A DNA stretch of 39,607 nt, taken from sequence record SRR31156797_77. The stretch is one strand, 5' to 3'. Of this stretch, positions 8,306 to 36,800 are shown piece after piece (within the stretch, counting starts at the first letter, position 1; every line of letters starts with the position of its first letter). The notes under the pieces were generated by a model. It made no database searches, had not been told where the DNA came from, and saw only the letters and a list, made by a program, of their open reading frames with translations. Made by a program: the position numbers and the translations under genes.

Positions 8306-9328
8306 CTATATAATAACCAAAAATATGGAAAAGATAGTAAATATTGTTAGCAATACTTTAGAACAGTATCTAACTAAGTATTGATATTCTCTTTTGCTGG
8401 AGAAATGGTAAGTAGATTTATAATTCATAAAAAGAAAATCAGCATTGATCAATTTGTTAACAGAATAGAGTGAGTATATAAGGGAGAATAGTTTGTGAAA
8501 AAATCCAATATAGCACCGGTTAAATTTAACGTATAAAAAGAAAGCCATAAGGGTAAAAACAAAGCTGAAGGCAGCCATCTCAGGCATTAGGAAAAAATAA
8601 AGTCTTACTTCTTCCTCAAAAATATTAAATTTGTTTGAAATTATAGAATTGACTATGTTAGAATTTGAGAAGGAGTTTAGTGTTTTAACATTAACATTAA
8701 TTATAGGCCAAATTTGGACAAAGAGAAAGAAGCCAATAAGAAAAAACGGAAAAAAAAAGCCTTTATAGTTACAAAGATACATTAAAAAAATGACGAAACC
8801 AAGTTTCCTAAGCCCAAAGTTTCTATTTAAGATAATCATAAAATGCAATAATAAGGAACCACTAGTATAAACTAGATGCAGAAAACAAGCTCTCAAAAAA
8901 AGGCACAACCCTTCACTTTCCAAACCCACAAAACTAACAAATAGTAACTTGTTTTTTTTCATTATGTTATTTAACGTTATAAACGAAACTAAATAATTTA
9001 AAAACAAATTTAATGGAACCAAGATTACTTTATTACTAGTAAATTTTGACACGATCTTTATAACTTTAAAAGATACTTTTTCCACAGTTTTTACCTGAAA
9101 AAACAGAAAAACATACCAAAATATAAATATACTTTTGTCTATTATCGGATTAGCTATATAAAAAGTGTGAAATAAACTAGAAAATGGTATTTTATAGAAT
9201 AAGAACTCCCCTAAGTAATCAAGAGCATCAAGACCTACATTCATACCCATACAAGGAACGACAATATAGTCGCTCCAAAACGAAAATGTCCAAAAGATAC
9301 TCAACGTGATTAGACCTTGTATTATCAA
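8306..9328 (-). CDS. secY: Divergent preprotein translocase subunit SecY (TTG start)
   Basis: Polytopic membrane protein with colinear SecY motifs: YIVVPCM (FIPIPGI), KSIF (ASIF), TSGSLLLHFMIILNRNFGL (VTGTMFLMWLGEQITERGI), LMPEMAAFS (VIPAIFASS), FSLIYSLYSVNKLINADFL (FCFFYTALVFNPRETADNL). Lies upstream of rps13-rps11. Confidence 0.8.
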   Translation of the reverse strand: MIIQGLITLSIFWTFSFWSDYIVVPCMGMNVGLDALDYLGEFLFYKIPFSSLFHTFYIANPIIDKSIFIFWYVFLFFQVKTVEKVSFKVIKIVSKFTSNKVILVPLNLFLNYLVSFITLNNIMKKNKLLFVSFVGLESEGLCLFLRACFLHLVYTSGSLLLHFMIILNRNFGLRKLGFVIFLMYLCNYKGFFFPFFLIGFFLFVQIWPIINVNVKTLNSFSNSNIVNSIISNKFNIFEEEVRLYFFLMPEMAAFSFVFTLMAFFLYVKFNRCYIGFFHKLFSLIYSLYSVNKLINADFLFMNYKSTYHFSSKREYQYLVRYCSKVLLTIFTIFSIFLVII

Positions 9329-11481: not shown

Positions 11482-13359
11482 TTACTGACAGTAAAAAGAA
11501 CATAAAGCCTTACACAACAAGTATTGAGCTCGTAACCAATCACTTAAATTATTTTTTCCTAAAGATGATACAACTAAAATGTTTTGTAAATTTACAAAAC
11601 ATTTTGACTTCAAGTTTCTACCATAATACTGAACTTTTGAATCAGAACTGTTTAAAGCAAGAAAGCGTACTATTTGGAGAAAAAAGAACGTCACAAAAAC
11701 ATCTAAGTCGCACAAAGCCAAATTGATGTTAAACTGATTAAGAAGTCCCGACACAACAGCATACAATTTAACAACTTGTACATCAAGTGGAAGCGGACAG
11801 TGTATATCTTGTTTTAACAACTCAGTAAATAATTGACCTCTTTGCAACAAATATACGGTAGATTGCTCTAAATCTGAGCCAAACTGAACAAAAGCAGCTA
11901 TTTCCCTATACTGTGCTAATTCAAGCTTCAAATTAGATGAAATACGCTTCATAGGAAGCTGCTGAGCTGAAGAACCAACCCTGCTAACGGACAATCCTAT
12001 ATTTATTGCTGGTCTTATTCCCTTATAAAATAATTCAGTTTCCAAAAATATCTGACCATCCGTAATAGATATAACATTTGTTGGAACATATGCTGATATA
12101 TCACCAGCTTGAGTTTCGATTATAGGCAGTGCCGTAAGCGATCCAGAACCAAATTCTTCTCTCATTTTGGCCGCGCGCTCTAATAGTCTAGAGTGTAAGA
12201 AAAACACATCACCTGGAAATGCTTCCCTACCTGGAGACCTACGCAAAAGGAGAGACATTTGTCTATAAGCAACTGCCTGTTTGCTTAGATCATCATATAC
12301 AACTAAACAATGCATTCCTTCATTTCTGTAATACTCACCTATGGTACAGCCTGTAAAAGGAGCCAAAAATTGTAGTGGGGCCGCGTCAGATGCGGTTGCT
12401 GCAACCACTGTAGTGTAACTAAAACTTCCTTTTTTGTTCAAAAAATCAACAACCTTTGAAATTGTTGATCTTTTTTGTCCTATTGCAACATAAACACAGT
12501 AAACTACTTCCCAGGGGTTATTATTATTATATGCAATAATATTTGAAAATGACTGATTTAGTATGGAGTCTAAAGCAATGGATGTCTTACCTATTTGTCT
12601 GTCCCCAATTATCAGTTCACGTTGCCCCCTTCCAATTGGAATCAAACTATCTATTGTTAATATACCAGTGTAGAGAGGCTCATTAATAGATTTTCTTTTT
12701 ATTATTCCAGGAGCTTTACTCTCCAAAAGATAGAATGGTATGTTTTTTTTCATTATGAACTCATACCACTCACTAAAACTGTTTTTTTGATTATCTGGAC
12801 ACCCTAAAGCGTCTACAACTTTACCTAATAAAATTTTGCCTACAGGTATATATATAACCTCTCCTGATCTAGAAACACTCTGCCCCTCTGTAATGTCCTT
12901 ATCATTTCCAAAAACAATAGCATTTACCTTTTCTTTTTCTATATTAAGCGCCATTCCCATAACACCTCCACCAAAATCTATTTTTTCACCAACCTTAACA
13001 CCCAATAACCCAAAAATTTTTGCAACTCCGTCACAAACTGACAGCACTCTCCCAACTCTATCCAGACGGACCGTTGCTCTGTAATTGATTAATCTTTCGT
13101 GAACAAGTAAATAGAATGTAAGAAAATTGTTTTCAAAATCCTGGCTACGACCTAAACCGAACTCTGCCCAGTAAGTATAAAGAAAGCGAAAAAAATTTCC
13201 ATGTGGATACTTGGTTGATACAGTGACCCTTTTTGCATAATTTAATACTCGTTCGGCATCTCCCTTTCTTATGGGAAAGCCATCTATGTTTTTGGGAAAT
13301 AAGTTTTTATCCATTTTCTGGATTACGAAAAGATTGTTTACATTTTTTGACACACTCAA
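11482..13359 (-). CDS. atp1: ATP synthase F1 alpha subunit with N-terminal extension (true start uncertain; may be fused to upstream delta-like ORF)
   Basis: [63 protein letters not shown]. The ORF-track start is a TTG immediately after an in-frame TAA. Confidence 0.98.
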
Positions 13360-13804
13360 TTATAACTTCTTTAGTCAAAACGTTAAACATTATGTCATTG
13401 AGACGATTTATTGAATTAGTATTGTCTACAGTGCTACTATTGACATAATTAATCAGTCCGCTTTTCCAGTCCTTTAGACCGAAAACGATGTACTTTGGAA
13501 GTTCGGAAAAATCACCCTTTTCTGCTATACTTTCGACAAGCTGCGTTCTAGTTTCAAACCACAACTCAAACTCTTCATCAGTAAAGTGGCTACCCATAAT
13601 ATTTCTCATCTCATTTTTTAGCTCCAAACTGTTAATCCTTGAATCTGGATCAAAAGGAATTTTTCCCAATTTTGGTCCCCTGAATATTAATAAAGAGTTC
13701 CTCCTTTTTCTCACCATAAAGTCAATTGTCGTGTATGGAAGCCACATAAATGGGCCATCTGGAAGCTTCTGATTATAATTTTTATTCTTGTTTCTTTTTG
13801 TCAT
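13307..13804 (-). CDS. Putative ATP synthase delta subunit (bacterial AtpH / mitochondrial OSCP homologue), N-terminal part
   Basis: [19 protein letters not shown] resembles Atp[51 protein letters not shown] aligns ungapped to [31 protein letters not shown]; atpH-atpA adjacency. Confidence 0.65.
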
Positions 13805-13845: not shown

Positions 13846-15432
13846 TTAAAGTTGGTAATATGATGAGTATAAGTCTTTTTTAAAAAGTACTGTTTCCTCA
13901 CCTCCCAACTGTATCGGGGTTCCTCCCCACCAATATAAACCAATTAAAATGAATAGCCATAAAGCATCCACAAAATGCCAGTACCACACTACGGCATCAA
14001 ATCCCACGAAATTATCATCACTTCCAAACTGTCCAAGTTTACATCTTATTAAGAGTATCCCTATTAAAGATACACCTATAATAACGTGAATTCCATGAAA
14101 TCCAGTTAGTAAGTAGAAAACTGAATGATATATACCATTTGAAATACTGTTTCTTGACTCAACATACTCACAAATTTGTGTAATTATAAATAACATTCCT
14201 AATAAAAATGTGACTTTTAAATCTCTGTTAATTTTTTCATTGATTTTAGAGTCGTAGGTTCTAACATATTCGTAGTTCTCAATCTTGTGTCTTTCCTTAG
14301 AAAATAATCTGTAAGATGAACGCATTTCTGAGATGTAAAATAGTTTATTCTTTAAGGAAATGGAATATTTTGAATAGTAATAAACCACTAAATTGACTAA
14401 ATTTTTATTTAGCTTAGTAAAAATGACTGTTAGAGTAACTTTATTATACCTGTGATTAATCACAGAGTCTGTTAAAGCACGTGTAAAGGATACTGCAGTA
14501 TCCTTTATATTTAGAACAGAATTAGGAAGTGACCCCAGGCACTTATGTGATACTTTATTGTACAAAGTTGATAGTCGTTTGAATAATAATGGAAATAACA
14601 AACTTTTATTGTACTTGTTACGGTGGAAAAGTTTAAAGTCTTCAAAAACGGCGTTTGCTCTGTAGATAGTTGGTTGAGTCAAAAGTGCTAAAAAAAAACG
14701 ATAGTGAACTAAAATAAATTCCCCAACATTATCAATATTAGTATGGAACCAAGCCTTATACAAAGAATAATTACTATACTCTTCACACAAAAACCAATCA
14801 ATAAACCTGAAAAAAATAAAATTCAAACCACCAACTTTTTTCACCTCAGTAGCAGCGGACCGAGTAAAGATTATAGGGTCTTTTTCTTTGTCCAGCAAGA
14901 TAACGTTAGAAGTTTCTGTATTGGCTCTGTTTCTTTTTTGAAAGACTAATTGATAGTGACTTGAGGTTATGGTAATACTTGATATTAGCAAAATAACTGT
15001 ATTTATGAGTGGAATTCCCCATGGGTTTATATAATCAGTCCCTATAGGGGGCCAGACTATTCCAGAAGCAATAGAAGCAACCAAGCTATTATGAAAAAAG
15101 GACCAAAAAAAACCAACAAAAAATAATACCTCAGAAAGTATAACCAGTAAGACCATAAACTTGTAATTAATTACAACCTTATAGCTGCATTTTTCCAAGA
15201 ATATACTTTCTCTAATTACATCTCTTATCCAAAGAGCCATACAATAAAACAATAGGCTAAACCCTATAAGGGATACTAGAGGCCCCTCTTTATAACCGTT
15301 AAAATAAAGAGCCAAACCTATACCAACAATAATCAAAGGAAAACAAGCAAAAAATGGCCACGGGCTGTACCCAATAGAATAAAATCTATTTCTTAATTTA
15401 ATATATTTATAATTATTCTTTTTTTTGTTCAT
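13846..15432 (-). CDS. cox3: Cytochrome c oxidase subunit 3 with ~240 aa in-frame insertion
   Basis: SPWP, WIRDVIRES, SEVLFFVGFFWSFFH, WPP, LLTGFHGIHV, WYWHFVD. Confidence 0.97.
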   Translation of the reverse strand: MNKKKNNYKYIKLRNRFYSIGYSPWPFFACFPLIIVGIGLALYFNGYKEGPLVSLIGFSLLFYCMALWIRDVIRESIFLEKCSYKVVINYKFMVLLVILSEVLFFVGFFWSFFHNSLVASIASGIVWPPIGTDYINPWGIPLINTVILLISSITITSSHYQLVFQKRNRANTETSNVILLDKEKDPIIFTRSAATEVKKVGGLNFIFFRFIDWFLCEEYSNYSLYKAWFHTNIDNVGEFILVHYRFFLALLTQPTIYRANAVFEDFKLFHRNKYNKSLLFPLLFKRLSTLYNKVSHKCLGSLPNSVLNIKDTAVSFTRALTDSVINHRYNKVTLTVIFTKLNKNLVNLVVYYYSKYSISLKNKLFYISEMRSSYRLFSKERHKIENYEYVRTYDSKINEKINRDLKVTFLLGMLFIITQICEYVESRNSISNGIYHSVFYLLTGFHGIHVIIGVSLIGILLIRCKLGQFGSDDNFVGFDAVVWYWHFVDALWLFILIGLYWWGGTPIQLGGEETVLFKKDLYSSYYQL

Positions 15433-15499: not shown

Positions 15500-16117
15500 C
15501 TACTTAATAAATAAAGTATAAGACAATATAATATTATCAACATTAGCAACACGAAAATCTTCCTTATAGGAAGGATCTATATAAAAAAGAACAGGGAGCT
15601 CTATTATCTCTTTTGGTGCTATCCACTGTTCTTCAAAGCAAAAGCACTGTATTTTATTAAAATAAATGCTTATGTTATTTGGTGTGGTAGTATAGGTTGC
15701 TATAACTGAAATAGCATGATTTTCCAAATTTTTTATTTTATAAAAAACCAATGCAGCTTCTCCAGATTTAACCAATACCTCCGGCTGTAACGGCGAAAAG
15801 ACTACCCTAGTGGGTTGAAGAACATCAGTATTTAATCTTACTAGAAAGTTGTTAGTGTCCTTTACTCTGTCCTTTAACAAAGACTCTCTCAAGAGCTTTG
15901 CTTTACGAAACAAAGTCTCACCTTCCATTATATTAGCTTGACAGAAAAGGTTATAAACCGGCACTGCACCATATGCCAAACTTACCATAATAATTATAAG
16001 AATCACAAGATAAGAATAATTATAACCACTGTTCTCGAATATTCTTCTCAATTTTTCTTGTCCCTCTTTTTTAACAAAATTCCGATGGATTTGGACGTTC
16101 CAATTAACATTTTGCAC
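15500..16117 (-). CDS. cox11: Cytochrome c oxidase assembly protein Cox11 (CtaG); start may be the TTG at 16051
   Basis: YGAVPVYNLFCQ, YFNKIQCFCFEEQ, LPVLFYIDP, LSYTLF. Confidence 0.97.
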   Translation of the reverse strand: MQNVNWNVQIHRNFVKKEGQEKLRRIFENSGYNYSYLVILIIIMVSLAYGAVPVYNLFCQANIMEGETLFRKAKLLRESLLKDRVKDTNNFLVRLNTDVLQPTRVVFSPLQPEVLVKSGEAALVFYKIKNLENHAISVIATYTTTPNNISIYFNKIQCFCFEEQWIAPKEIIELPVLFYIDPSYKEDFRVANVDNIILSYTLFIK

Positions 16118-16485
16118 ATACCACGTATTTCGTGGGCTGATTTTTTTTCACCATATTTAAGCATACATATTTCATATATAGTTCTTAGAGAAATACGCCC
16201 AGCCAATTCCTTCTTGGGAAGACTACTGCCATACTCGGTGTTGGAAACCCTTTTTACAAAAAATGAGTTGGTTGGTTTAAAGTACTTTATTTTGAAGCTC
16301 TTATCAGGTAAAACCGTAATTTCAACAGGTATTATAGTACCATTTTTGTTATAACTCATTTGTTTCTCAAACTCTTCGCAAACTTGTGAAGAACTTGCAT
16401 TATTTTGTCCTATTGTCTGAGTAACACTTGGCTCTTCAAGTGACCCACCGACCGGAACGAACATCTTGAATTTTTTTTTCCACAT
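16048..16485 (-). CDS. rpl11: Ribosomal protein L11
   Basis: PSVTQTIGQ, CEEF, IPVEITVLPDKSF, GRISLRTIYEI, GTSKSIGI. Confidence 0.92.
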   Translation of the reverse strand: MWKKKFKMFVPVGGSLEEPSVTQTIGQNNASSSQVCEEFEKQMSYNKNGTIIPVEITVLPDKSFKIKYFKPTNSFFVKRVSNTEYGSSLPKKELAGRISLRTIYEICMLKYGEKKSAHEIRGMCKMLIGTSKSIGILLKKRDKKN

Positions 16486-16637: not shown

Positions 16638-18470
16638 TTAATAAAAATTCTTATAAGTCTCCAAATCAATCACTGTAAACAAGTTGTATAAGGAACCAGT
16701 TGTAGCCACATCACTAATGGAGCTTTCAACAATCCTATTAATGTGTGCAACGTCCAGTGTTTTAGTGGAACCAAAAAGGTTCAGTTGCGACCAGTTGTAA
16801 AACTTTGATTCCATTCTACGCATGGTAGCATTTTTGCCTGATCTTATAAGTTTTTCTTTCAAACCTATTGTCAATCCTCTGTAATGCCTTTTTCTAATAA
16901 GATTTTTGTCCCATTCGTGCTTGTAAACCAAAGAGCCAATTGAACTTATACTTTGATTGTGACATCTCTGAGTGTTAAAACCTTTGATTTTATTCAAAGT
17001 TCGTAATAAAAATTTGTTCATTTTTTTCTTTTTATATATAGGATTAGAGTTGTTAATACCAACCAAGAAAGATTTTCTAAAGTAGTTTCTTTTTATTGTT
17101 AAATATAAAACGTCATCTATGGAGCGAGAAAAAGTTGACTTTAATACAAGTAAAGTAAAAAGCTCATTTAAGTAACTATGATCATAACAAGCTTCTAGTT
17201 TAGAAACTTTAACGTGATACCCTTCTAAACCAAGTAAAATCTGTTTAAATTGCATTGAATATAGACGTTTTAATAAAGGCCCTACCCGCTTTTTCAAGTG
17301 GGAACTACAAATAGATGACCTCAAACCATAGGATTCTTTGAAACCACTTAAAACATCAGCAGAGGAAAAAACACTTTTATCAATGTTCAGTGTGCTCATG
17401 AGACCACAATAACATAATGACATTATGTTATCATTAACCCATGAACTTTTCAGGTTAATAAGTGACATTACTCTCAAAATTAATGTATGTAGTGAACCAA
17501 CATACATGGCTTTAATATCATAATTAGTCCAACTTACTGCGTCTATACGTTCATCGTCATCTTGACTAAAATCCATACCATAATTTACTTCTGTACAAGA
17601 TACTAGGTCTCTTTTTGCAATTTCTAAATTATTTGAAACAAGGGTTAAGCAAGTTATGTAAGGTATATACACACCAAGCGTATCGAAAAAGGACATTCTA
17701 ACCTTGGATTTAAAGTCTGATAAATTGATTTTATTAGTGTATGTTTCTAGTTTCCATTGCTCCGCTGACGTTTTGTGAACGTGAGGAGATCTCTGCATGG
17801 AAAAAGAATGCTCTTTAGAAGGTAGGTAAAAGATATTGTTCTTTTTGGGACTGTTAAAAATGTCAAGGATATAACTTTTTTTTGTTCTCATCATAACCCC
17901 CAAGCCGCCAAAACTTTTAGATCTTGTGGAATATATACATGTTGAAAGACATAAACCTTTTTTCCAAACAGATAACAATTTAGTAAAAATTTCAGCCTTT
18001 TTAGAACGCAATTGCGTTCTAAGTATAATATAAAGAAGAAAAAAGAATTTTGATTTAAGCAAATTGAAGTACATTATGAACAAACACAACTCATATATAG
18101 ATAAAATATTAATAATAACACCCTTTCTAAAACTAATAAAATGGTATTCCAATAGGGTATTGCTACCAATGTAATCACCAAATAACATGAGACTCATAAG
18201 TTTATTTTTCATCGAAAATTTTTTCATAAGCCCAGTAAACCGCATGGTTCTCAACTCTTTTATTTTACACTTCCCTTTGGATTTAATAACCTTAAAAACA
18301 AATTTTACTAACTTGTCCTCAAATTGTTTATAATTTAAATCCTCTGCGTTAACCTCATTTAAATACAAATTAATCATTTTTTGTATAAATACTGACTGGT
18401 ATTTACACTGTATTTCATTGTAACATCTAACGTCTAAACTTAGGTTTGCTAAAGCTTTATTGCTTTTCAT
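16638..18470 (-). CDS. rps10: Greatly expanded ribosomal protein S10 (610 aa)
   Basis: YLPSKEHSFSMQRSPHVHKTSAEQWKLETY matches the S10 signature LP..R.F.VLRSPHV.K.SREQF. Confidence 0.8.
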   Translation of the reverse strand: MKSNKALANLSLDVRCYNEIQCKYQSVFIQKMINLYLNEVNAEDLNYKQFEDKLVKFVFKVIKSKGKCKIKELRTMRFTGLMKKFSMKNKLMSLMLFGDYIGSNTLLEYHFISFRKGVIINILSIYELCLFIMYFNLLKSKFFFLLYIILRTQLRSKKAEIFTKLLSVWKKGLCLSTCIYSTRSKSFGGLGVMMRTKKSYILDIFNSPKKNNIFYLPSKEHSFSMQRSPHVHKTSAEQWKLETYTNKINLSDFKSKVRMSFFDTLGVYIPYITCLTLVSNNLEIAKRDLVSCTEVNYGMDFSQDDDERIDAVSWTNYDIKAMYVGSLHTLILRVMSLINLKSSWVNDNIMSLCYCGLMSTLNIDKSVFSSADVLSGFKESYGLRSSICSSHLKKRVGPLLKRLYSMQFKQILLGLEGYHVKVSKLEACYDHSYLNELFTLLVLKSTFSRSIDDVLYLTIKRNYFRKSFLVGINNSNPIYKKKKMNKFLLRTLNKIKGFNTQRCHNQSISSIGSLVYKHEWDKNLIRKRHYRGLTIGLKEKLIRSGKNATMRRMESKFYNWSQLNLFGSTKTLDVAHINRIVESSISDVATTGSLYNLFTVIDLETYKNFY

Positions 18471-20608: not shown

Positions 20609-21433
20609 GTGTTATTAATGTCTATAGGACAAAGTGCTGTCTGGTGTCCAGAAACAAGAGCTTTAATGAAGAAGCAACATTCCATAATTAATTTAACCAG
20701 AACGAGACACATAAAAGTGGTTGTTTTGTTGGCTGTAATGGTGCTATTTCCTATAATAGGTTTGAGTCTATCGTTTGTGGATTTATTCTCTTTTATTGTT
20801 ACAATGGTGGTTATATCTGTCTCAACTGTTTATGTCAATCAAAGGAAGTCCGAAAGTGTGGAAAAAATTTTACAAATTAGAAGAAACCTAGACATCTCCT
20901 TATTAAACAGTTGTTTAATTCTTACTTTTATTTACTCTTATACATACGGATTGAAAAATTATTATTATTTAAGTAGTATGACCTACTCTAATCCATTGCT
21001 ATTCCATACCCCAAATAATCACCCAAATAAATTCCTGTTAGATATTTTGACTGCATACAACAGAATAGGTTCACATCATCTCTATAATGGAAGAAAAGTA
21101 ATAACTGCAAAGAAAAGTGATCACAATATTTATTGCCCAGTATTAAACTCTCAAGACTTTGTTAACAAGTACAACTATAATTGGTGTTCCAATGATTTCG
21201 CTACAAATAAAAAATTTACATTTACAGTGTTAAACACTACATCTTCACCGTTATATTTGTTTTCATTTTTGATGACCTGGATCATATATGCATCTTACCT
21301 AAGCATACAAAACACTACTATAAGTTTAGAGCAGGAAACCTTTTTAACAAATTATTACAGTAAACACAAACTAGACTATAGAGCCATTAACTCAAAGTTA
21401 CTAAACGTATTAGTGTCAACAATTATCATTTAA
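20609..21433 (+). CDS. Unidentified membrane protein, about 4 TM segments (orf274)
   Basis: Fills the gap between sdh2 and trnK; three N-terminal hydrophobic segments, a polar loop and one C-terminal hydrophobic segment. GTG start, or ATG at 20618. Confidence 0.65.
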   Translation: MLLMSIGQSAVWCPETRALMKKQHSIINLTRTRHIKVVVLLAVMVLFPIIGLSLSFVDLFSFIVTMVVISVSTVYVNQRKSESVEKILQIRRNLDISLLNSCLILTFIYSYTYGLKNYYYLSSMTYSNPLLFHTPNNHPNKFLLDILTAYNRIGSHHLYNGRKVITAKKSDHNIYCPVLNSQDFVNKYNYNWCSNDFATNKKFTFTVLNTTSSPLYLFSFLMTWIIYASYLSIQNTTISLEQETFLTNYYSKHKLDYRAINSKLLNVLVSTIII

Positions 21434-21446
21434 GTTAGAAGGAAAA

Positions 21447-21519
21447 TGTGCGTATTGGGATTTGAACCCAAAACCAGTGGATTAAAAGTCCAATGCTCTA
21501 CCAATTGAGCTATACGCAA
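21447..21519 (-). tRNA. trnK(uuu): tRNA-Lys (UUU)
   Basis: Anticodon loop CTTTTAA, A73; U1:C72 mismatch. Confidence 0.94.
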
Positions 21520-21529
21520 CTAGTTTGGA

Positions 21530-21602
21530 ACCGAATTAGCTCAATTGGTAGAGCAATTGATTTGTAATCAATTTGTTACTGGTTCAACTCCGGTATTCGG
21601 AT
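21530..21602 (+). tRNA. trnT(ugu): tRNA-Thr (UGU)
   Basis: ATTGA-TTTGTAA-TCAAT; A1:A72 mismatch. Confidence 0.93.
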
Positions 21603-21648
21603 CTTTCTTTGGGTATTTGTTCCTTTTTAAGCTAAAAAAAATTAGTTA

Positions 21649-23976
21649 ATGTCAAAACGAAGACTAAAAATTATCGCAACAAATTTGATATTTAATAAGT
21701 TGATTTATGTCGTTTATAAAATACTGGTTGCTTATAACTTTCTCTCAAAAAGAGGAGGCAGGTGTTTCCACAAGTCTGTAATAGAGCATCAATTACACTA
21801 TAGACTCATAACAGAAAAAGGGTTAAGACATAAGCTTAGTTTATTCTATGGACAAAACTATAATTTTCGCAATAACTTTGTTATAGAACTGCAAAGCATT
21901 ATTTATTGTTGCAAGATACTTAATGAGGCAGTAAGAAGATTTGAGGGTATATGTATAACAACAACACAATGGACTTGTGCTTTATCTCAATACTACGGCT
22001 ATTTTAATGAGGTAAAAGCCGGAGAGGGAAAAACAATTATTATATTGGTCTCCGCATTTATAAGTAATATAGACAGGAAAGGAACTCATGTTTACACATT
22101 TAATGATTACCTGGTTTTGCGTGATGCTATTAACGCGTCTAGGATATTTAACCCGATAGGAATATCGGTTGGTGCTCTGACGGTTGAAAATTGGCAACTT
22201 GTAATTAAGGACAAAGCATTAATGTCCAAAATGGCTTGGATGGATATAATTTATTCGACCTGTAAAACTTTTTCTTTTTGTTACTTAAGTGGGATTGAGA
22301 AAACCAGAGCTCCATATACAGCCATAGTTGACGAAGCGGATAATTTGATTTATGACCAAGCATATGTACCAATAATATTGTCTGAGGGCCATGTTCCATT
22401 CTTAGTGAATGAAACATTGAAAAGAGAATTGTTTAATATTGCTTCAATATTGAAAGAAAAAAAACACTATTTTGTGGTAAAAGGCAACGTTTTTCTTAAC
22501 GAACTGGGCCTTTTACAAGTAGGTAAGGCGTTAAAAGAAGGAAACCTTAAATTTAACTTTATAAATGAAACTTCATTTATGAACCTAAATTTACTAAATT
22601 TAATTAAACAGTATATATTTGCAATAAAAGTTTTAAGAAAAAATGTTGATTACTCAATTTATAAGAAAGACAATAAAATTGTGCTGCTTGATCCTAGTAC
22701 CAGTCGTATTTCTGAAGGTTCAGTCTTTTCCTATGGCTTACAGGAAGCCCTTTACATGAAGGAAAACATTTTTCATCTAGATAGTGAAACAAGAGGTGAT
22801 TCTCATATGGTTGTAATGGATTTGTGGGGCAAATACTGTAAAGTTGTTGGCTTGTCTGCTACTCTTAAATATAATAATATTTATCACTTTTTAAAGGTAC
22901 ATTTTTCTATTCCGAAGTATCAAATACTTTTATTTCCAAAGGCAAAAAAAGATAGCAGATTTGATTTCAAAGGTGTCCATTTATCACGTGTTAGTGATGT
23001 CAATAACATATTAATATTGTTTATAATAGCTTTAGGTATTTGTGGCAGACCTATAGTTATGGTTGATAATAGTCATAATCACATAATCAAAATTACTCTT
23101 CAGCTCAAAAGGCTCGGCGTAGCTTTTCAAAAAGTGAGTTTTGACGATGCAAGTCACGAAAATATAATGGTTAGAAGAGCTGGATCTCCTGGTTTTCACA
23201 CGATTTGTTCTAGGGTGATCTCCAGAGGAACAGACATGGTCTCAAGTGAGTCTTATAGCTTACGTTTGTCTAGATTGTCTCTTAGTAATGCATTATCTTC
23301 CGCTGCAGGTGGAACTTCTCTTATATTAATTAATGGGGAGAAACAATCTCCTCGCTTGGTGGAACAAATCAAGGGAAGAGTCTCTAGAAGAGGTTCTATA
23401 GGAACCTCTTTTAATTTCAGCTTATCAAAATTGAAAAAGTTTGAGTCGTTCCTCAATTCAAGTTTTAATTCTTCTTCTAATATCTACTCGTGTAGACAAA
23501 AAAATTTTGAGTCTATATTGGAATTCTCAACCGCAATAAACAATAATTATTTATATAAGCTAATTCAGACTAAAAACACTGAAAAAGAAAAAATTTTATG
23601 TGCTTTATTTGGAAGGGGAAAATTAACTGACTCTGTGAAGAAGAAGGTAATAAAAATAATATTTATGGAATTAGAAAGTATTAAATTCAGAAGCATAAGT
23701 GCCTTTTTGTTAAAAAGAGACATAGTTACAAGTCTTACTTATCTAATGGAGAGAGATCTACAAAAAGATGGTAAAAAGCTAGAAAACTTTTTTGCGGAAA
23801 ACAAGTTATGTATAAATTATGGTTTACCAGTTAACAGAGGTCTTTTATTATATGAAATAAAATTTATAAGTAGGATAAATGACTTTAAGCTTTCTGAAGA
23901 TAATAATAAAACAGTGGTAAGATTCCTTATGGAATTGGAAAAATTAAATATTCAAAAAATAAGAAGAAGGCAATAG
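21649..23976 (+). CDS. secA: Preprotein translocase ATPase SecA (775 aa)
   Basis: EVKAGEGKT (Walker A, EMxTGEGKT), HVYTFNDYLVLRDA, AIVDEADNL, GLQEALYMKE, GLSAT, GRPIV, SRGTDM, QIKGRVSRRGSIGTS, all colinear with SecA. Confidence 0.95.
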   Translation: MSKRRLKIIATNLIFNKLIYVVYKILVAYNFLSKRGGRCFHKSVIEHQLHYRLITEKGLRHKLSLFYGQNYNFRNNFVIELQSIIYCCKILNEAVRRFEGICITTTQWTCALSQYYGYFNEVKAGEGKTIIILVSAFISNIDRKGTHVYTFNDYLVLRDAINASRIFNPIGISVGALTVENWQLVIKDKALMSKMAWMDIIYSTCKTFSFCYLSGIEKTRAPYTAIVDEADNLIYDQAYVPIILSEGHVPFLVNETLKRELFNIASILKEKKHYFVVKGNVFLNELGLLQVGKALKEGNLKFNFINETSFMNLNLLNLIKQYIFAIKVLRKNVDYSIYKKDNKIVLLDPSTSRISEGSVFSYGLQEALYMKENIFHLDSETRGDSHMVVMDLWGKYCKVVGLSATLKYNNIYHFLKVHFSIPKYQILLFPKAKKDSRFDFKGVHLSRVSDVNNILILFIIALGICGRPIVMVDNSHNHIIKITLQLKRLGVAFQKVSFDDASHENIMVRRAGSPGFHTICSRVISRGTDMVSSESYSLRLSRLSLSNALSSAAGGTSLILINGEKQSPRLVEQIKGRVSRRGSIGTSFNFSLSKLKKFESFLNSSFNSSSNIYSCRQKNFESILEFSTAINNNYLYKLIQTKNTEKEKILCALFGRGKLTDSVKKKVIKIIFMELESIKFRSISAFLLKRDIVTSLTYLMERDLQKDGKKLENFFAENKLCINYGLPVNRGLLLYEIKFISRINDFKLSEDNNKTVVRFLMELEKLNIQKIRRRQ

Positions 23977-24069: not shown

Positions 24070-24966
24070 ATGGCTGATATTAATAAATTTAAGGCAAAAA
24101 TAAAGACTAATGAGTCCGCAAAAAAAATAACTAAAGCTATGAAAATGATATCAACCTCTAAATTAAGAAATTTGCAGCGTGAAAAGATGAATCTTGATCT
24201 TTTTTTTCCTCGATTTTTTAGTGTGTTTAAAAGCTTTTATAGTTTGGAGAAAAGTTTCTTAAATTTAACTCCGTTGAATTATAATATTGTATTAATAACC
24301 ACCGATCGCGGTCTCTGTGGTAGTATTAACAACTTGAATATGAAAAAGTACGGTTTTATGATTCACAGATTAATTACTTTTGCTAATTATAACAATAATA
24401 AACACTCAGTTAGTACTACATGTTTTGGAAATAAGGGTCTGCTGTTTATAAGTAAGTACAAATACTTTACAAAAATGGATGACACATTTGTTTTCAGTGA
24501 GTTGAACAAAAAAAACACATTTTTTAATTGGATGAACAACGTTATAAAACAAATTTTTGATTGCTTGCCTAAAGAGAACCTACTAGAGTCCCAAAAATAT
24601 GGATGTGATTTAACTATCTTCTTTTTTCATAGATTTTATTCTACAATGGTTAATAAACTAAGGATTCAGTTTTTTTTTTCTAAACCACTGTTTAAAACCT
24701 CAAACGTTGCGAAGAAAAACGACAAAAACGTAACAACAAATCCCAATGTATGGGAATATTTTTACATAACTCATTTATTTTATTCTATAATAAATAATAG
24801 CAAGAGTGAACTTGCTTCACGTATTAACGTTATGCAGAACTCAATTAATAGTGCAGAGAAATTAATATCAAAACTAGTCATACAAGAAAATAAAACTAGA
24901 CAGTCTTTGATAACTAGGGAATTATCGGAATTGGTAGCGGGACTTAATGCTACATTCATAGAATAA
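24070..24966 (+). CDS. atp3: ATP synthase F1 gamma subunit
   Basis: KITKAMKMIS, TDRGLCGSIN, SELASRINVM, RQSLITRELSELVAG. Confidence 0.97.
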   Translation: MADINKFKAKIKTNESAKKITKAMKMISTSKLRNLQREKMNLDLFFPRFFSVFKSFYSLEKSFLNLTPLNYNIVLITTDRGLCGSINNLNMKKYGFMIHRLITFANYNNNKHSVSTTCFGNKGLLFISKYKYFTKMDDTFVFSELNKKNTFFNWMNNVIKQIFDCLPKENLLESQKYGCDLTIFFFHRFYSTMVNKLRIQFFFSKPLFKTSNVAKKNDKNVTTNPNVWEYFYITHLFYSIINNSKSELASRINVMQNSINSAEKLISKLVIQENKTRQSLITRELSELVAGLNATFIE

Positions 24967-24994: not shown

Positions 24995-25228
24995 ATGTTA
25001 AGTTTTACGATTAAACAAGTATTTAATCTTACAATCAAACTTTTAAAAAATTGCTATTGCAGCAACTACAAAGTCATTAAATCATTAATTCTGTACTCAT
25101 ATTCCATCATTTGCGGTTATTGTGCCTTTATAAGAAAAGAGGAAACAAGCCCAACCAAATTAATTGGAATTGGATATATAATGTTCTTTGTTCTTATTAT
25201 ACTTGATCTAATTTGCAGATTTTGTTAG
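24995..25228 (+). CDS. Small ORF with C-terminal TM helix (orf77); weak SecE candidate
   Basis: ATG-started ORF filling the gap between atp3 and orf339; hydrophobic end LIGIGYIMFFVLIILDLI. Confidence 0.45.
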   Translation: MLSFTIKQVFNLTIKLLKNCYCSNYKVIKSLILYSYSIICGYCAFIRKEETSPTKLIGIGYIMFFVLIILDLICRFC

Positions 25229-25261: not shown

Positions 25262-26281
25262 ATGACCAAGTTTGTAAAATTTCCTGAAACAAAAACCCCA
25301 AAAATTTGTTATATGACTTCTGAACCGAAAGACATATATTGCTATCTTGACGTTTTGATGGATGAATCTGAAAGGGTTAAGGAAGACAGATTTTGGGTTG
25401 AAAGAGGCACTATTAAAAAAGAAGATCTTCTCACTACCCATTTGTCAAACAATATAGACTGGTTCTTAAGGTTTAGGCATTATTGGTATTCATTTAGTTC
25501 TATTTATTATTTATTGAGCAATTGGGAAAAATTTACTTCTTATAATTCCAAGGCTTGCGGGATGGCGAGAGGCATTGCTTGCACTTCAAGCTATGTTGCA
25601 AACAAACACCTTATGTTAAAAAACAAAAGGAGCAAGTTTATTGCTAGATGGTTAAACAAGAAAAATTGGAAACCTATGTTTAAACAAAATACTCTTGTCA
25701 CCAACTTAGTCTTTAGAGAGGCTTTTCCTACAAGACTATTGTTTTTGGAGCATTTAGATATTTTTGAGGCTTATGGTGATGATTCTAGTAGTGGAATAAA
25801 TGATGAAGTAGGTGCAGAGGAAAATTTGGATCTGCATGAAACATCACTTGATATAGAGGCGGAAGCGTTTGAAGAGGAACCAAATTTTCTCAAATGTTTT
25901 CCCAATAACTTTGAAGTTATAAACTGCGCCTTTAAAGTCGACAATATTTTCGTTGTAAACGTTTGTGATCCGGATCACTATGACGCTTTAGATTATGCAG
26001 ACTTAGATAATGCAATCTACAGAAAGGATCATAAAAAACAGACTTATGAATGGCAAACGAATTTTGCGTATACTGTTTTAAACATGGATGCAGAAAGCAA
26101 AGTATTGGCAAGGTTATTCATTAAAAATATAATAACAAACAAAAAAATTAAAACAAAAAGAAAGCTTACCTTGCTCAAATTATTAAAAGGTACCAAAAGT
26201 AGCAACCCAACGTCCAATTGGGTAAGATCCGATATATTTCGCTTCTTTCTACTAACCAGTTGTGTTTCTATCTTCGGATGA
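25262..26281 (+). CDS. Unidentified protein (orf339); possible expanded ATP synthase epsilon (AtpC) homologue
   Basis: Long ATG ORF with an acidic tract; two segments resemble AtpC (see findings). Confidence 0.65.
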   Translation: MTKFVKFPETKTPKICYMTSEPKDIYCYLDVLMDESERVKEDRFWVERGTIKKEDLLTTHLSNNIDWFLRFRHYWYSFSSIYYLLSNWEKFTSYNSKACGMARGIACTSSYVANKHLMLKNKRSKFIARWLNKKNWKPMFKQNTLVTNLVFREAFPTRLLFLEHLDIFEAYGDDSSSGINDEVGAEENLDLHETSLDIEAEAFEEEPNFLKCFPNNFEVINCAFKVDNIFVVNVCDPDHYDALDYADLDNAIYRKDHKKQTYEWQTNFAYTVLNMDAESKVLARLFIKNIITNKKIKTKRKLTLLKLLKGTKSSNPTSNWVRSDIFRFFLLTSCVSIFG

Positions 26282-27569: not shown

Positions 27570-27632
27570 AATTATAAAAGCATCTTTTTTTTATCGAGTG
27601 CAATTCTTTTGACATTTGTTAAAACAGTAATA

Positions 27633-27845
27633 ATGCCTCAACTAGACGGTTTGATTTTTTTAACACAGGTACTAATATCAACCTTTGTATTTTCTTTGTC
27701 TTATTATTTACAGGCTGAGTTTTTGTCTCCATACAGGACAGCGGTGTCTTGGGAAAGTTCTATGTTTCTGGCCCGCACTGTAAAACAAATTTACATAATA
27801 AGACTAATTAAGGAGAAAAAAGTCCGTAAAAAAATAACGTTATAA
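27633..27845 (+). CDS. atp8: ATP synthase subunit 8
   Basis: Hallmark MPQLD start at 27633, followed by one TM helix and a basic tail. Confidence 0.92.
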   Translation: MPQLDGLIFLTQVLISTFVFSLSYYLQAEFLSPYRTAVSWESSMFLARTVKQIYIIRLIKEKKVRKKITL

Positions 27846-27959: not shown

Positions 27960-28187
<228 letters not shown>

Positions 28188-28538: not shown

Positions 28539-30350
28539 ATGATTAGAAAATTGAAGAAAATTTACGTAAAATATTTACGCATCAAGAAGTATGAGGCCTG
28601 GGCAATAAAAAAGTCCCACGTTGAGCTATTAGAGGAAAAATACGTTCCAAATAAAGAAGGAAAGTTAATTGTTTCTCGTTATATTGACGTTAATCAAAAA
28701 TATGAATTTTCCTTTGAAGACTGGAGGGAACTATGCAGAAGCAAAAAAGACAAGCGGGATTGGCTAGCCGGTAGGTTAGCACGTAGGGTTGTAATAAGGA
28801 ATGAACGTGGAAACTTAGAAATGAGACAAGTAAAAGAGGTTGTTGACATGAAGAGAAAAGAATATGAGGAACTTTCTTATCTTTCCAAGTTATTATATAA
28901 TTCAGGTCGCAAGTACAGAAAATTTAGATCTTTACTATTTTTCAGGTTAGGAAAGTATAACCTTGTTTTATGGATACTTGCAAGCTTTTATTGTTTATTG
29001 AAGATTAGAAAAGATGAACTAAGGATTGATCTTTCAAACATTAATAAACAGCAAGTTCTTGTGTTTATAATATTTTATATTACTATAACAATGTCATGGT
29101 ACAAATTCAAAACCTGTAAATTTGGTATACACATGCAATATACAAAAATAGGAATCTCTATATCCAGAATAAAGCAAATTATATTGCTTCCATTTAGAAG
29201 ATTTATTGGTCCGAAACTGAGTCTTTTAAAGGGATTTTACGACGATCCAAATAGATTTACTTTAGAGTTATTAAAGCCTATCTCTGATGGTTCAGAAACA
29301 CTAAAAAAAAGGTTTTTTAAGTACAGTAAATATACAATAATTATTACACACTATACATATTGCCTCTTTTTTTTATTGAACTTATTTACGAAGGTTATCA
29401 GTCGCGCAACTGCCTCTTTAAGTGAGCGTTTAAATCAACTAGAACAGTGGCTAAAAAACTGGGAAAATTTTGTGAAAAATCCATCGTATTTCCTTTTACC
29501 AAAATCACTAAAAATAGATGACTCACAAACTATAAAAGAAATAGGTCTACTTAGATTTGACGAATACATTTATTTAGATCCACAAAGAACAGGAACATTT
29601 TTTGAAAGCTTATTCCTGGATGTCTTTTATTATGGCGAAAAAAGTGCAATACCTTTATCTTCGTTTCAGACGTCAAAAACCCCATTACTAAACATAAAAT
29701 TGAAAAAAGAAGGGCGCTGCCGTGTTGAGGAGATGGAAGACCTTTTATCAGATGTTAATTTTGAGTGTTTTGAGTATGTAAGTTATCTTGTTCAATCCCT
29801 TTTCAAGCCAAGGCTTATTTTTAATATGTCATACTCAACAATAAACTTCATAACCATGAAAATGATTGCCTACAAAAAAAGAAACATTGATTCAAACGTA
29901 CTAAAATATTCACTTGGAAGCTTTAATAAAAAAAGAATGCAAATATTGTTTCGCGTGTACGTCAGGAAGGTCATATATTTCATTACAAATAAAGTATTCA
30001 TTGATGCTTCATGTTTAAATGATAGTAAAGAAGAAGTCATAAGATGGGCAACCGTTACGCTTTTGTATTACACATTCTTCTCGCTGTTTTATGGTGAAGA
30101 GTTTGACAATGTAATAAATAATGAAGTGGATAATTACTTTTTTAATTTCATAATTGAAAACCTCAATGGATTAAAAGAAACGGAAAATGGAAAAGATTGG
30201 CTTATAAACTATATAGAAATTAAAAAATGTTATACTGAAGAGACTAAAGACGTGCTAAGACAAAAAAAGAGATATGATGTTCAGGTCTATGAGGAAGAGC
30301 TGAAATCATATGAAGAAGCACGAAAGGCCAAAAAAAGACATAATAAGTGA
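28539..30350 (+). CDS. Unidentified 603 aa protein (orf603)
   Basis: 1.8 kb stop-free frame in AT-rich DNA; its TGA overlaps the cob GTG start (GTGA). No motif recognised. Confidence 0.75.
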   Translation: MIRKLKKIYVKYLRIKKYEAWAIKKSHVELLEEKYVPNKEGKLIVSRYIDVNQKYEFSFEDWRELCRSKKDKRDWLAGRLARRVVIRNERGNLEMRQVKEVVDMKRKEYEELSYLSKLLYNSGRKYRKFRSLLFFRLGKYNLVLWILASFYCLLKIRKDELRIDLSNINKQQVLVFIIFYITITMSWYKFKTCKFGIHMQYTKIGISISRIKQIILLPFRRFIGPKLSLLKGFYDDPNRFTLELLKPISDGSETLKKRFFKYSKYTIIITHYTYCLFFLLNLFTKVISRATASLSERLNQLEQWLKNWENFVKNPSYFLLPKSLKIDDSQTIKEIGLLRFDEYIYLDPQRTGTFFESLFLDVFYYGEKSAIPLSSFQTSKTPLLNIKLKKEGRCRVEEMEDLLSDVNFECFEYVSYLVQSLFKPRLIFNMSYSTINFITMKMIAYKKRNIDSNVLKYSLGSFNKKRMQILFRVYVRKVIYFITNKVFIDASCLNDSKEEVIRWATVTLLYYTFFSLFYGEEFDNVINNEVDNYFFNFIIENLNGLKETENGKDWLINYIEIKKCYTEETKDVLRQKKRYDVQVYEEELKSYEEARKAKKRHNK

Positions 30351-33856: not shown

Positions 33857-36800
33857 ATGAGCAAACGAAGACTAATTGAGAAAAAAAGGATAGTATTCCC
33901 ACAGCTGCTTTCCAATGAAAAAGTTGGTTGGGCACATGTGCGTTTAAAAATATTTAATTGGGATGGTTTAGGAAGATATACTATTCATAACAATGAGGAC
34001 AAAATAGCTATTTTCAACACATATACAATATACAAGTGGATGTCCAACACGCACGGTTTGAAATTTTTAGAGCCTTCTAGAGTTTTTTATGTTTTGGCTA
34101 TACGCTCACAAACAGGGTGGTCTCTAGACTTCTTGGACTCCAGAGAAGAAGTTGGTTGGAAGTCGCAAATTGGGGTCAAAATCTATAACACAAATGATTT
34201 TCCTAAGCACTTTCCAAAGCTTGGACCTAAAGACTTGGCTAAGAAATCTTTCTGGGGATTTCGGTTTTTGCTACACTATATTCCCAAAATTTTTTCCTTT
34301 GCAACAAAGATGATTCAATGTAAAGGTTGGTTGTATCACCATAATCTATTCTTAAGAGATGGGGGTGTGTCAATCAAAGCTTGGAGACTAGAGAGTGAGC
34401 CTCTTTATTACAATGAAATTGGCGGTATAAGAAAAAAAGGTAGAAGTAAAAACAAGGACACTGGTGTTCGTTCATTCAAAGCTTCCATGTATTTGAACCA
34501 ACGTGTCAGAAGGTTTTATGGCTTTATGTCTAGAACTGGGAAAAATTTGGTGCAAACAGTTGATCGCAAAAAAGGTATCTTGTCCAATGGTTCAAATGTT
34601 CTATTTGAGGGTAAAGTCGATATTATATTGTTCCGAATAAAATGGACGCCTAATATATCAGAAGCAAAGCTTATATTCAATAGCAAAATTTTATTCCTCA
34701 ATGACTTTTTAGTAAGAAAAAGTAAAATTTTGCTTAAACGGAGTGACTACTTACATTTTGGCAGTGAACATTCCGTTAATGTCTCACTTGTACCAGAAGT
34801 TGTAAAACGTTGGAAAGGTAATGAGTTATTTAATTCTCCTCAAGTGGTTGAACTTTTTGAGCGTTCCTGGGACTCTTTTTTGTCAACTAAGTTCGTACTC
34901 TTATCAATACCTTTGACCCTCTTAATTAAGACCCTTAAAAGCAAATTCAGCATAGAAGATATAAAAAATAATCTAGCCTCACCCGAGCCAATTGAAAAGG
35001 GACTTGACTTTTATTTTGGGACCCTGTTAGAATTTAATCCTTTCAGTTTGCATTCTTTGAGCCACTGTGATAAATACAGAGTCTTCAGACCTAAAGCAAA
35101 AAATAAAGGTTATACTTTTGTTTTATGGTTTGCTGGTAAAACTTTGAACCTAAAAATGGGTCCAATAATAAACGTATCTGAAAGGCTCAGCAAGATTAGC
35201 AAATTTGAATCACTTCCTGTCCTCTCTGGCCTTAACGGTCCTTCTTTTTTTGGCGAAGTTGAGAACTTGTTGGGTTTGAGTTCACAACACTTTTGTGGTC
35301 TCTTTTGCTCCACCTTAGAACGGATGGAATTTCCTATAAATTTGTCTACAGTTTGGAAACGTTTAACTCAGAAAGATCGAATTAACTTCAAGTATTGGAC
35401 ACTTAATAGGGTTTCTAAATCCGGAAGTAAGGATCTTTTGCTAAATGAGTTTTTGCACGACTTAATAAGTGCAAAAAATCCACACTTAATTAATGCCTCT
35501 GAAAGTATTTTTATTTCAAAATACTTGAACACAAAATTGTGGAGGCTTTATCTTTCAAACGTGGAGCGAGAAGTAGGTTCATCCAGATCAAACATCTTAC
35601 AGGAAAAAGTAGGTATGCTTTCAAGTAATGATTACATTTTCATAAAGGCTGAGAGGAAAATTAGAAAAACTTTCCTCTCAAACTTCGAGATTTCAATCCT
35701 CTTCTCTACCATTAGAGAGTATTACCTAATTATAAACTCTAACAATAAAGAACTGGAATTCTTAAATAATAATTATATAAATACAAGAGACACAGGTATT
35801 AAAAATTGTTTAAAATCTATCTCCAGTCGATTTGTTAATGAAAAAGAGAAACTTATAATTACTGAAATGAGGTACTTATTGGGGAGTATTTTTGTTGCCG
35901 GAAAGAGGATAATAAAATTTGTTCGATATATTGGTTCTAGATCTCTAGATGAAAGTTTAATGACCATTTCCTTAAGAAGGAAAATCAGTAATGTTTTAAT
36001 GGACTATAAAACTCTTCTTTTAAAAATTGTTGGTCACCTTGACTTTATTTTAACTAAATTGAAAAAAAACCAACCGGAAATTCAAATGGTATTGAAAACC
36101 GTACTATTTAAATTGCTAGACAGTAAAAACTTGTCAAAATATTGTAGCTATGATGGTTATAGTGATAAAGAAGTTCCATATTGGTATAAATACAATAAAA
36201 TAGAAAAAGGATTATACACACACAACGATCCCTTTGAGGAAATATTTTCTGGCTTGAAGACTCATTTTAACGAATCTCTACCTTTAAGTCTGAATAAAAA
36301 AACATTCATGCCCGGCGAAATTTGGCTTCCTTATCCAGGCTATGCTGAAGTTGATTATAATAATATGATCTGTACTATGATTGACACACCATATCACCTT
36401 TCATGGGAGCCTAGAAAGTCAAAGTATCTATCGGTACCAAGAGGTGATTCTAGGTGGCTGTATCATTTGGTCTATAATCTATCTGGGAAGGTTATAAGTG
36501 TTCCTAAGGGCATGAAATTCACCTCATTTAATGAAGTGGATCCTAGATTCCTTAAACTCTTGAAAGTGTGGTCTCTGCTCCCTTCAAAAATACAAGAGAC
36601 ATACAAAGAAAAAAGGTTGATGTTCTTAAGTTTAATGTCTGACAGTAATATTAAACATTCTGAGGGCTTAACCGATTATTGGATGTCCGAACTAAGCTTT
36701 AACCCATATATTCATGTTCGGATTGAGGAGGATATACCTCCAAGGATGCTTAACTACTCAAAAATCTCAATTGATTGGCTGAACTTTGATTTCACTAAGG

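Follow-up and report, generated by a model that had tools for sequence, protein, structure and literature searches.

Mitochondria are bacterial in descent, and the SecA-driven route of protein export has long been believed to have been discarded by them; to our knowledge, SecA has been lost from almost all mitochondria. The 39,607-nucleotide stretch of DNA from sequence record SRR31156797_77 analyzed here ("the window" below is this whole stretch) carries an open reading frame (ORF) at 21649..23976 that looks like a gene for SecA among genes of mitochondrial type, and it raises the question of whether a mitochondrial genome can still encode a working SecA motor together with the channel through which that motor would act. 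We find it nearly certain that the ORF is a genuine mitochondrial SecA homologue. The explanation of the locus that we favor as a whole, an intact mitochondrion-encoded SecA that still takes part in protein export, has in our estimate a probability of roughly 0.58. The ORF and the parts of its product that are discussed below lie as follows, with residue numbers counted along the protein and the source of each assignment in parentheses (AF2, AlphaFold2; NBD1 and NBD2, the two nucleotide-binding domains).

21649..23976, + strand: secA ORF, 775 amino acids, ATG to TAG (ORF list, Pfam, NCBIfam, PDB, AF2)
21793..22869, + strand: NBD1, residues 49-407, with the preprotein cross-linking domain (PPXD) inserted in it (Pfam PF07517)
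22021..22035, + strand: Walker A motif GEGKT, residues 125-129 (alignment of 51 sequences)
22330..22341, + strand: DEAD box / Walker B, residues 228-231 (alignment)
22429..22752, + strand: PPXD, residues 261-368 (Pfam PF01043)
23041..23412, + strand: NBD2, residues 465-588, with motifs V and VI (Pfam PF21090, alignment, AF2)
23434..23973, + strand: shortened C-terminal region, residues 596-775 (AF2, structure alignment)

The frame is single and uninterrupted over its 775 codons, and its ends agree exactly with those given in the initial annotation, which had called the product a full-motor SecA; that call stands, since homology to SecA lies far past chance by Pfam families, by PDB sequences and by fold. 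Pfam finds SecA_DEAD (PF07517; E 3.6e-28, 99.1 bits against a cut-off of 24.6) and SecA_PP_bind (PF01043; E 1.8e-9, 38.6 bits against a cut-off of 23.5) in the product, and P-loop_SecA (PF21090) scores 23.8 bits, slightly below its cut-off of 27. A PPXD inserted in NBD1 is the mark that separates SecA from other DEAD-box ATPases. The secA and secA2 models of NCBIfam match residues ~50-593 with E-values of 1e-42 to 1e-48, and a search of PDB sequences gave 24 distinct matches, every one of them named SecA or SecA2 (best E 1.3e-29). The AF2 model, built on an alignment with 50 bacterial homologues, has a mean predicted local distance difference test score (pLDDT) of 74.3 and a predicted template modeling score (pTM) of 0.73, and it displays the SecA architecture of two RecA-like ATPase domains, a PPXD in the first of them and a long scaffold-type helix; NBD2 is modeled with a pLDDT of about 80-90 over most of its length. 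When known structures were compared with this model by VIA-align, the top match was 3jv2_B (Z 35.5, 640 residues aligned, model residues 34..765), and 6itc_A, a SecA bound to SecY, matched with Z 34.6 and a root-mean-square deviation of 3.6 over 583 residues; against 3bxz_A the SecA fold is aligned through residue 597. SecA structures overall range from Z 35.5 to 24 against the model, while the next family, the DEAD-box helicases, reaches Z ≤23.

The motifs that had been picked out by eye are all present, namely GEGKT (residues 125-129), DEAD (228-231), GLSAT (401-405), SRGTDM (525-530) and QIKGRVSRRG (573-582), and HMMER lines them up with the corresponding motifs of B. subtilis SecA, where GEGKT falls on TGEGKT. 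Across all 51 aligned sequences G125, E126, G127 and K128 are invariant, as are D228, E229 and D231 (the DEAD being aligned to a bacterial DEVD) and, in NBD2, R526, G527, Q573, G576, R577, R580 and G582. Overall identity to the 50 bacterial SecAs is 19-24%, and the window SecA retains 32 of the 45 invariant columns of that set and 50 of the 70 conserved at ≥95%. The retained columns are those of the nucleotide-binding and hydrolysis motifs: Walker A, DExD, the RG of motif V and the Q/G/R/R/G of motif VI. Judged from the alignment, this pattern of conservation appears to be that of a fast-evolving yet still constrained ATPase, and the window SecA is quite probably still active as one.

The genomic setting is that of a mitochondrion, and secA is native to it. 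The genes on either side of secA, and two small ORFs further along the same strand, are the following.

21530..21603, + strand: trnT(UGU), immediately upstream of secA (ARAGORN, Rfam)
24070..24966, + strand: atp3 (ATP synthase gamma), immediately downstream of secA (Pfam ATP-synt 2.6e-41, TIGR01146 1e-37)
27609-27845, + strand: atp8-like small ORF, recognized by eye, product beginning ...MPQLD, no family match
27963-28187, + strand: atp9-like small ORF, recognized by eye from its glycine-rich hairpin

In a Pfam scan, 24 of 33 ORFs (SecA itself counted) match families of mitochondrial type. Genes for respiration and ATP synthase are cox1, cox3, cob, cox11, sdh2, sdh3 (weak), atp1, atp3 and atp6, and genes for ribosomal proteins are rps2, 3, 7, 10, 11, 12, 13, 14 and 19 and rpl6, 11, 14, 16 and 19, with rps4 found by NCBIfam in an ORF of 1045 amino acids (3.6e-6). 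Rfam finds 24 tRNAs, the 5' half of the small-subunit rRNA at 1-886 (- strand) and the 3' end of the large-subunit rRNA at 39323-39607 (- strand); since both rRNA genes are cut by the window's ends, the window is a piece of a larger molecule, and because in addition no nad gene was seen in the 39.6 kb, a substantial part of the genome must lie outside it. TGA ends four ORFs and trnW has the anticodon CCA, which indicates the standard code. Features cover 90.1% of the window, the atp8- and atp9-like ORFs occupying its largest apparent gap.

Within this setting secA is spaced 45 nt from trnT and 93 nt from atp3, and it belongs to a same-strand run that begins near 19.2 kb and comprises sdh2, orf274, secA, atp3, orf77, orf339, atp6, rps14, atp8, atp9, orf603 and cob. 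Its G+C content is 0.313 (0.272 at third codon positions), where other genes have 0.27-0.38 and the window per kb has about 0.29-0.39, and its relative synonymous codon usage correlates better with that of the pooled known genes (r=0.935) than does the usage of any other of the 33 genes. The mitochondrial neighbors and shared base composition first noticed from the letters alone are thus confirmed by Pfam, Rfam, G+C content and codon usage.

The organism or a very close relative is present at low depth in marine sediment, because two 251-nt contigs of a marine sediment metagenome (share 0.10) are identical to window positions 20913-21163 and 21240-21490, inside orf274; otherwise that metagenome gave only tRNA-like matches of other organisms, and secA is uncovered in it. 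The contigs, which come from a single run, thus do not reach secA, and a reader might ask whether the arrangement is an artifact, either a chimera made in assembly or mitochondrial DNA to which a bacterial contaminant has become joined. We regard this as very unlikely, with a chance close to negligible, because codon usage and G+C are indistinguishable from those of the neighbors and the gene context matches as well, with tight spacing to trnT and atp3; also, no bacterial SecA among 1.84 billion representative proteins is more than 30% identical to this one.

Several other features of the genome were seen. At ~19100-19550 genes switch strand, with - strand genes to the left and mostly + strand genes to the right; the GC skew changes sign at roughly this point, and a cluster of five tRNA genes lies there. 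The region could be an origin or one in which transcription starts divergently. A number of conserved genes are greatly lengthened: rps3 (4593-6143) has 516 amino acids, atp1 (11482-13359) 625 with an N-terminal extension, cox3 (13846-15432) 528 with its Pfam match in two pieces, rps10 (16638-18470) 610 and rps4 (33857-36994) 1045, and in the lengthened ribosomal protein ORFs the recognizable domain is only a small part. Six ORFs of 165-603 amino acids with normal codon usage (1078-1770, 10479-11375, 13307-13804, 20609-21433, 25262-26281 and 28539-30350) have no Pfam or NCBIfam match. One of them is orf274 (20609-21433), a short way upstream of secA, in which a basic N-terminus leads into a strongly hydrophobic stretch.

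Against the reading of an intact SecA that still exports proteins weigh the divergence of the protein, the state of its C-terminal region, its phylogeny and the want of a detectable channel. As to divergence, the NCBIfam equivalog cut-offs are far from reached (164.8 against 862 bits for NF006630; TIGR00963 gives 143.9 bits against a cut-off of 800), and by these scores the product would be classed as a very divergent member of the SecA family. Thirteen of the 45 invariant bacterial columns are altered, including D211C, E407K, LNA to VSF, MAG to VIS before RGTD, GL to TS at 556-557, Q581R and R675L. The closest SecA in the 1.84 billion representatives is only 30% identical, and there is no relative with which a selection test could be made.

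Such altered columns, a terminal branch at the ceiling of the tree program (below), scores far under the equivalog cut-offs and the loss of the wing, zinc-finger and tail regions (below) are also what one would see if secA were a decaying relic or had taken on a new role unrelated to protein export. We consider this improbable: a 775-codon frame is open in a compact genome, what remains conserved is exactly the nucleotide-binding and hydrolysis motifs plus the PPXD, and clearly essential genes of the same window are equally divergent, with family matches of only 6.4e-5 for rps3, 1.1e-4 for rpl19 and 8.1e-4 for sdh3.

At about half its usual length, the C-terminal region is short, and confidence in its model is low. 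AF2 places a long scaffold-type helix at residues 633-679, which is aligned to the SecA scaffold helix up to ~683, but only 5 of the 17 conserved columns of the scaffold region are identical. After this helix come ~95 residues of low-confidence helices; model residues 684-765, with a pLDDT of 25-53, correspond to residues 623-779 of the B. subtilis SecA chain (~157 residues), about 100 gap columns are opened in the alignment here, and the conserved motifs of the region are unrecognizable. Neither the helical wing domain nor the two-helix finger that enters SecY is identifiable in the model, the fold match or the alignment, and the wing domain appears to be largely missing. Pfam finds no SEC-C (PF02810) or SecA_SW match in the product, whose terminus, ...QKIRRRQ, is without a cysteine cluster. 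The lack of a C-terminal zinc finger that had been proposed is borne out by this null result in Pfam and by the shortness of the region, and the accompanying idea of a specialized enzyme fits the halved length and the loss of the zinc finger. A zinc-binding and SecB-binding tail is not universal among SecA proteins. The window SecA is a stripped-down enzyme whose C-terminal region is halved and which lacks the SecB/zinc tail.

Phylogeny, in turn, does not show an origin from the mitochondrial ancestor. The SecA tree holds 54 of 80 named bacterial SecA loci, chosen for phylum spread (26 were left out), and apart from one Melainabacteria row it is without plastid, cyanobacterial or Mantamonas SecA; the model was LG+C20+F+G4 with posterior mean site frequencies (PMSF). 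The terminal branch of the window SecA stands at 10 substitutions per site, the ceiling of the program, and in composition this sequence departs from the rest of the alignment; a quick free tree put it beside the next longest branch, a Calditrichia row, a join that the tool flagged. The approximately unbiased test did not reject a clade in which the window joins a Micavibrio row and 12 alphaproteobacterial rows (p-AU 0.884); this clade was defined after the first tree and leaves out L056, which lay with Gammaproteobacteria. The tree constrained to contain it was 30 log-likelihood (lnL) units above the quick free tree, a gain due only to a better backbone that the quick search had overlooked. 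A scan of 106 branches of the constrained backbone spanned 11.8 lnL units, with 73 of the 106 placements within 5 of the best, which was again the Calditrichia row; the alphaproteobacterial, the gamma/beta and the Pseudomonadota stems each had a delta lnL of -2.4, a Bacillota placement -4.7 and a Melainabacteria placement -4.9. The window SecA is too saturated for its donor to be named, and the tree speaks neither for nor against the grouping with plastid or non-alphaproteobacterial SecA by which the initial annotation would have been refuted.

Searches of large protein collections gave distant relatives. A word-indexed search of 5.8 billion proteins yielded 274 matches at E ≤1e-3 (best 2.5e-40, 28% identity), most of them SecA2-type proteins of Bacillota, and a HMMER scan of the 1.84 billion representatives yielded 4308 matches, 9 of them at E ≤1e-30 (best 1.7e-35). 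Of 20 top or A+T-rich matches two have a name, one a Mycoplasma SecA and one a generic SecA label, and none is mitochondrial. Two A+T-rich, long-branched SecA proteins, P0240 and P0179, were tried as organellar relatives and showed no supported grouping with the window or with any other group. In a scan of metagenome contigs for SecA, none of 233 pattern matches was confirmed. The best matches of cox1 have 56-70% identity, again without a close relative.

If secA had been acquired horizontally, from a bacterial or plastid donor, instead of descending from the mitochondrial ancestor, one would expect a tree that fails to join the window to Alphaproteobacteria, and that is what the free tree and the best placement (with the Calditrichia row) give; the preponderance of Bacillota SecA2-type proteins among the word-based matches points the same way, and red-lineage plastids encode SecA in their organelle genome, as the review of Petru et al. 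2021 (PMC8662606) has it. We nonetheless judge transfer quite improbable. The Calditrichia placement pairs the two longest branches and stands only 2.2 lnL units above placements in or at the alphaproteobacterial clade, and the clade of window plus Alphaproteobacteria is not rejected; A+T-rich top matches are expected from shared composition; codon usage is fully host-like, so that any transfer would be old; and the SecA of Mantamonas is reported as alphaproteobacterial (Moreira, Blaz, Kim, Eme, 10.1101/2024.01.30.577968).

The last point that weighs against an exporting SecA is the channel. Two ORFs of the window have to be considered here.

8306..9328, - strand: ORF340, a hydrophobic orphan protein of 340 amino acids with a TTG start (ORF list)
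24995..25228, + strand: orf77, one C-terminal hydrophobic segment at residues 56-74, no Pfam or NCBIfam match at E up to 10

ORF340 has at least five strong hydrophobic segments and is flanked, on the same strand, by rps12-rps7 and rps13-rps11. In bacteria and jakobids secY sits just upstream of rps13-rps11, which is the position of ORF340 here. The Mantamonas preprint (10.1101/2024.01.30.577968) also has a statement on synteny. The initial annotation had gone further and called the ORF secY; the ORF exists and its product is hydrophobic, but ten tests for SecY identity were all blank. ORF340 matched no Pfam family and no NCBIfam family at E up to 10, its only match among PDB sequences was a chance one to a kinase (0.098), its protein-atlas scores (0.83) were to unrelated families, and none of 2437 word-sharing candidates matched it at E up to 1. 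A hidden Markov model (HMM) of SecY was built from 29 proteobacterial SecY proteins (35 Pseudomonadota SecY loci were taken, and 6 were dropped as their longest frame was not SecY), and in an hmmsearch of the window's 275 six-frame ORFs with filters off it gave ORF340 an E-value of 17 and a score of -2.0; the best match of this HMM, 10.5 bits at 1594-1812 (+ strand), is a short hydrophobic chance match. Aligned to SecY by hhalign, ORF340 reached a local score of 10.1, below all 12 of its own shuffles (12.0-21.9) and also below 8 other proteins of the window (12.5-18.3). Its single-sequence AF2 model has a pLDDT of 44, and the prediction of a complex between it and SecA (trimmed to residues 117-775), with a score of 0.00 and the partner unfolded, speaks neither for nor against an interaction.

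SecE and SecG fared no better, as a scan of the small and family-less ORFs gave no Pfam or NCBIfam match at E up to 10; in all, no SecY, SecE or SecG was detected in the window by Pfam and NCBIfam or, for SecY, by our own HMM and hhalign. The shape of orf77, and its shape alone, would suit a SecE-like subunit. What sits at the secY position, ORF340, is an orphan membrane protein, and its location and hydrophobicity make it a positional candidate for the channel and only that. The statement that the window encodes both motor and channel is left unsupported along with the secY assignment, because no test ties ORF340 to SecY. Between rps13 and ORF340, but on the other strand, Rfam finds a tRNA-like gene (8195-8258, + strand; 49.5 bits) that ARAGORN missed.

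These null results also suit a SecA that was kept and works independently of SecY, as a matrix ATPase or chaperone feeding an Oxa1/YidC insertase or as a ribosome-bound factor. Neither SecY, SecE nor SecG gave a signal in the six-frame ORFs, where the best SecY-HMM match is spurious and ORF340 scores below zero, and the region that in bacteria bears the SecY-inserting finger is halved in the window SecA. On balance we find such a role rather unlikely: the window is only part of the genome, both of its ends lying inside rRNA genes; ORF340 is a multi-pass protein at the bacterial and jakobid secY position; the PPXD clamp is retained; and jakobid SecY is described in the Mantamonas preprint (10.1101/2024.01.30.577968) as extremely divergent, so that a true channel could plausibly have been missed.

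We therefore retain as the preferred reading a mitochondrion-encoded SecA that serves in export, and put the chance that it acts as a motor of translocation together with a SecY-like channel at somewhat better than even. The SecA encoded here, on the same strand as sdh2, atp3, atp6 and cob, would be translated in the matrix; its PPXD would clamp hydrophilic segments of mitochondrion-encoded proteins, and ATP hydrolysis would drive these segments out of the matrix and over the inner membrane by way of a SecY-type channel, for which ORF340, a gene outside the window or a nuclear gene are the candidates. This mechanism is carried over from bacterial and plastid SecA, whose working mode is summarized by Petru et al. 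2021 (PMC8662606). Likely clients would be proteins that are anchored by their N-terminus and expose a large domain to the intermembrane space, for example Cox2, for which there is no gene in the window, and Cox11, for which there is one.

15500..16117, - strand: cox11 (Pfam CtaG_Cox11 6.2e-41)

In its product a hydrophobic segment (residues 36-54) precedes a soluble domain. Cox11 was proposed earlier as a client of jakobid SecY, as quoted in the Mantamonas preprint, which itself proposes Cox2 and Atp4 as clients in Mantamonas (10.1101/2024.01.30.577968); by analogy Cox11 is a possible substrate of the window SecA. The cox11 frame, with a GTG start, overlaps the end of rpl11 (16048-16485, - strand) by 70 nt, and the true start is probably further downstream.

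As a kind of finding, a mitochondrion-encoded SecA is already in print, for Mantamonas and, reportedly, for Solarion arienae, a marine protist and sister of Meteora in which Valt et al. are said to describe a mitochondrial secA in Nature. Our search of the literature for mitochondrial secA, with supplementary files outside its scope, returned the Mantamonas preprint only. What the present analysis adds is that the SecA call is solid, that the secY call is not, and that the ancestry of the gene is unreadable from its sequence. A SecA gene in a mitochondrial genome directly attests that the export route persisted beyond the last common ancestor of eukaryotes, and a case outside Mantamonas broadens that evidence. 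A pared-down SecA lets one ask which parts of the motor are indispensable; the window also raises the questions of which mitochondrially made proteins (Cox11, Cox2) still need SecA and whether SecA can work with a channel that is no longer recognizable. The missing channel and the minimal C-terminus are the points worth pursuing. A bolder interpretation, to which we give a distinctly small chance, is that the organism belongs to a lineage unrelated to Mantamonas whose minimal SecA, without wing and zinc finger, operates without canonical SecYEG and uses a diverged channel of the ORF340 type or another insertase. Were it true, a minimal SecA without canonical SecYEG would represent a new mode of SecA action, and an independent lineage would be a second independent witness of SecA-driven export in the first mitochondria.

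How does the window compare with known systems? The mitochondrial SecA/Y/E/G set that the initial annotation had named for Mantamonas is indeed there: the 53,051 bp mitochondrial genome of Mantamonas sphyraenae (73.45% A+T) carries secA, secY, secE and secG, special tools having been needed for SecG, and Mantamonas is called the only eukaryote whose mitochondrial Sec system is complete (10.1101/2024.01.30.577968). Both mitochondrial genomes are gene-rich, use the standard code and contain a secA, and neither has SecD/F or SecB. In the preprint's account the Sec genes of Mantamonas are read as a relic of a proto-mitochondrial export pathway. Its secY, secE and secG are recognizable, whereas none is detectable in the window; the preprint calls its SecA well conserved and clearly alphaproteobacterial, and the window SecA is, as far as a comparison by description goes, far more divergent. 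In that account Mantamonas is also without cox11. The window is not the M. sphyraenae genome, because it has cox11 and a higher G+C content (0.29-0.39 per kb).

Bacterial SecA (B. subtilis, 3jv2, 6itc, 1m6n) has the same order of NBD1, PPXD, NBD2 and scaffold helix and shares Walker A, DEAD, RGTD and Q..GR..R with the window SecA at Z ~35 and ~20-22% identity in the structural alignment; the window protein differs in an N-terminal extension of ~15-20 residues, a C-terminal region of about half the length and the lack of a zinc-binding tail. Small size, reduced C-terminal parts and the absence of a zinc tail are shared with SecA2, of which structures from Clostridioides difficile (6sxh/6t4h) and M. 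tuberculosis (4uaq) match the model with Z 35.2 and 28.7; the SecA2 model TIGR03714 gives 5.1e-41, and many of the named best sequence matches are labeled SecA2. In the tree, however, the window SecA groups with no SecA2-bearing group, and small size together with an A+T-rich composition accounts best for the likeness. SecA2 systems are those of Gram-positive bacteria that have a SecA1 besides.

Among organelles, the SecA of plastids (thylakoid cpSecA) is likewise a retained bacterial SecA that exports from the inner compartment, and the same review has SecA motors absent from mitochondria (Petru et al. 2021, PMC8662606). Unlike the plastid genomes that encode SecA, the window has cox, cob, sdh and atp genes and no plastid genes. 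Jakobids (Reclinomonas and relatives), in published descriptions, keep a mitochondrial SecY as a relic of the same pathway and are without SecA; in the window it is SecA that is certain and SecY that is unproven. The presence of atp3 beside cox11 narrows down what kind of genome the window comes from. Before Meteora, atp3 was known in mitochondrial genomes only from Discoba, according to the Meteora preprint, and the rare pair of atp3 and cox11 is common to the window, to Discoba and to the Meteora mitochondrial genome described there.

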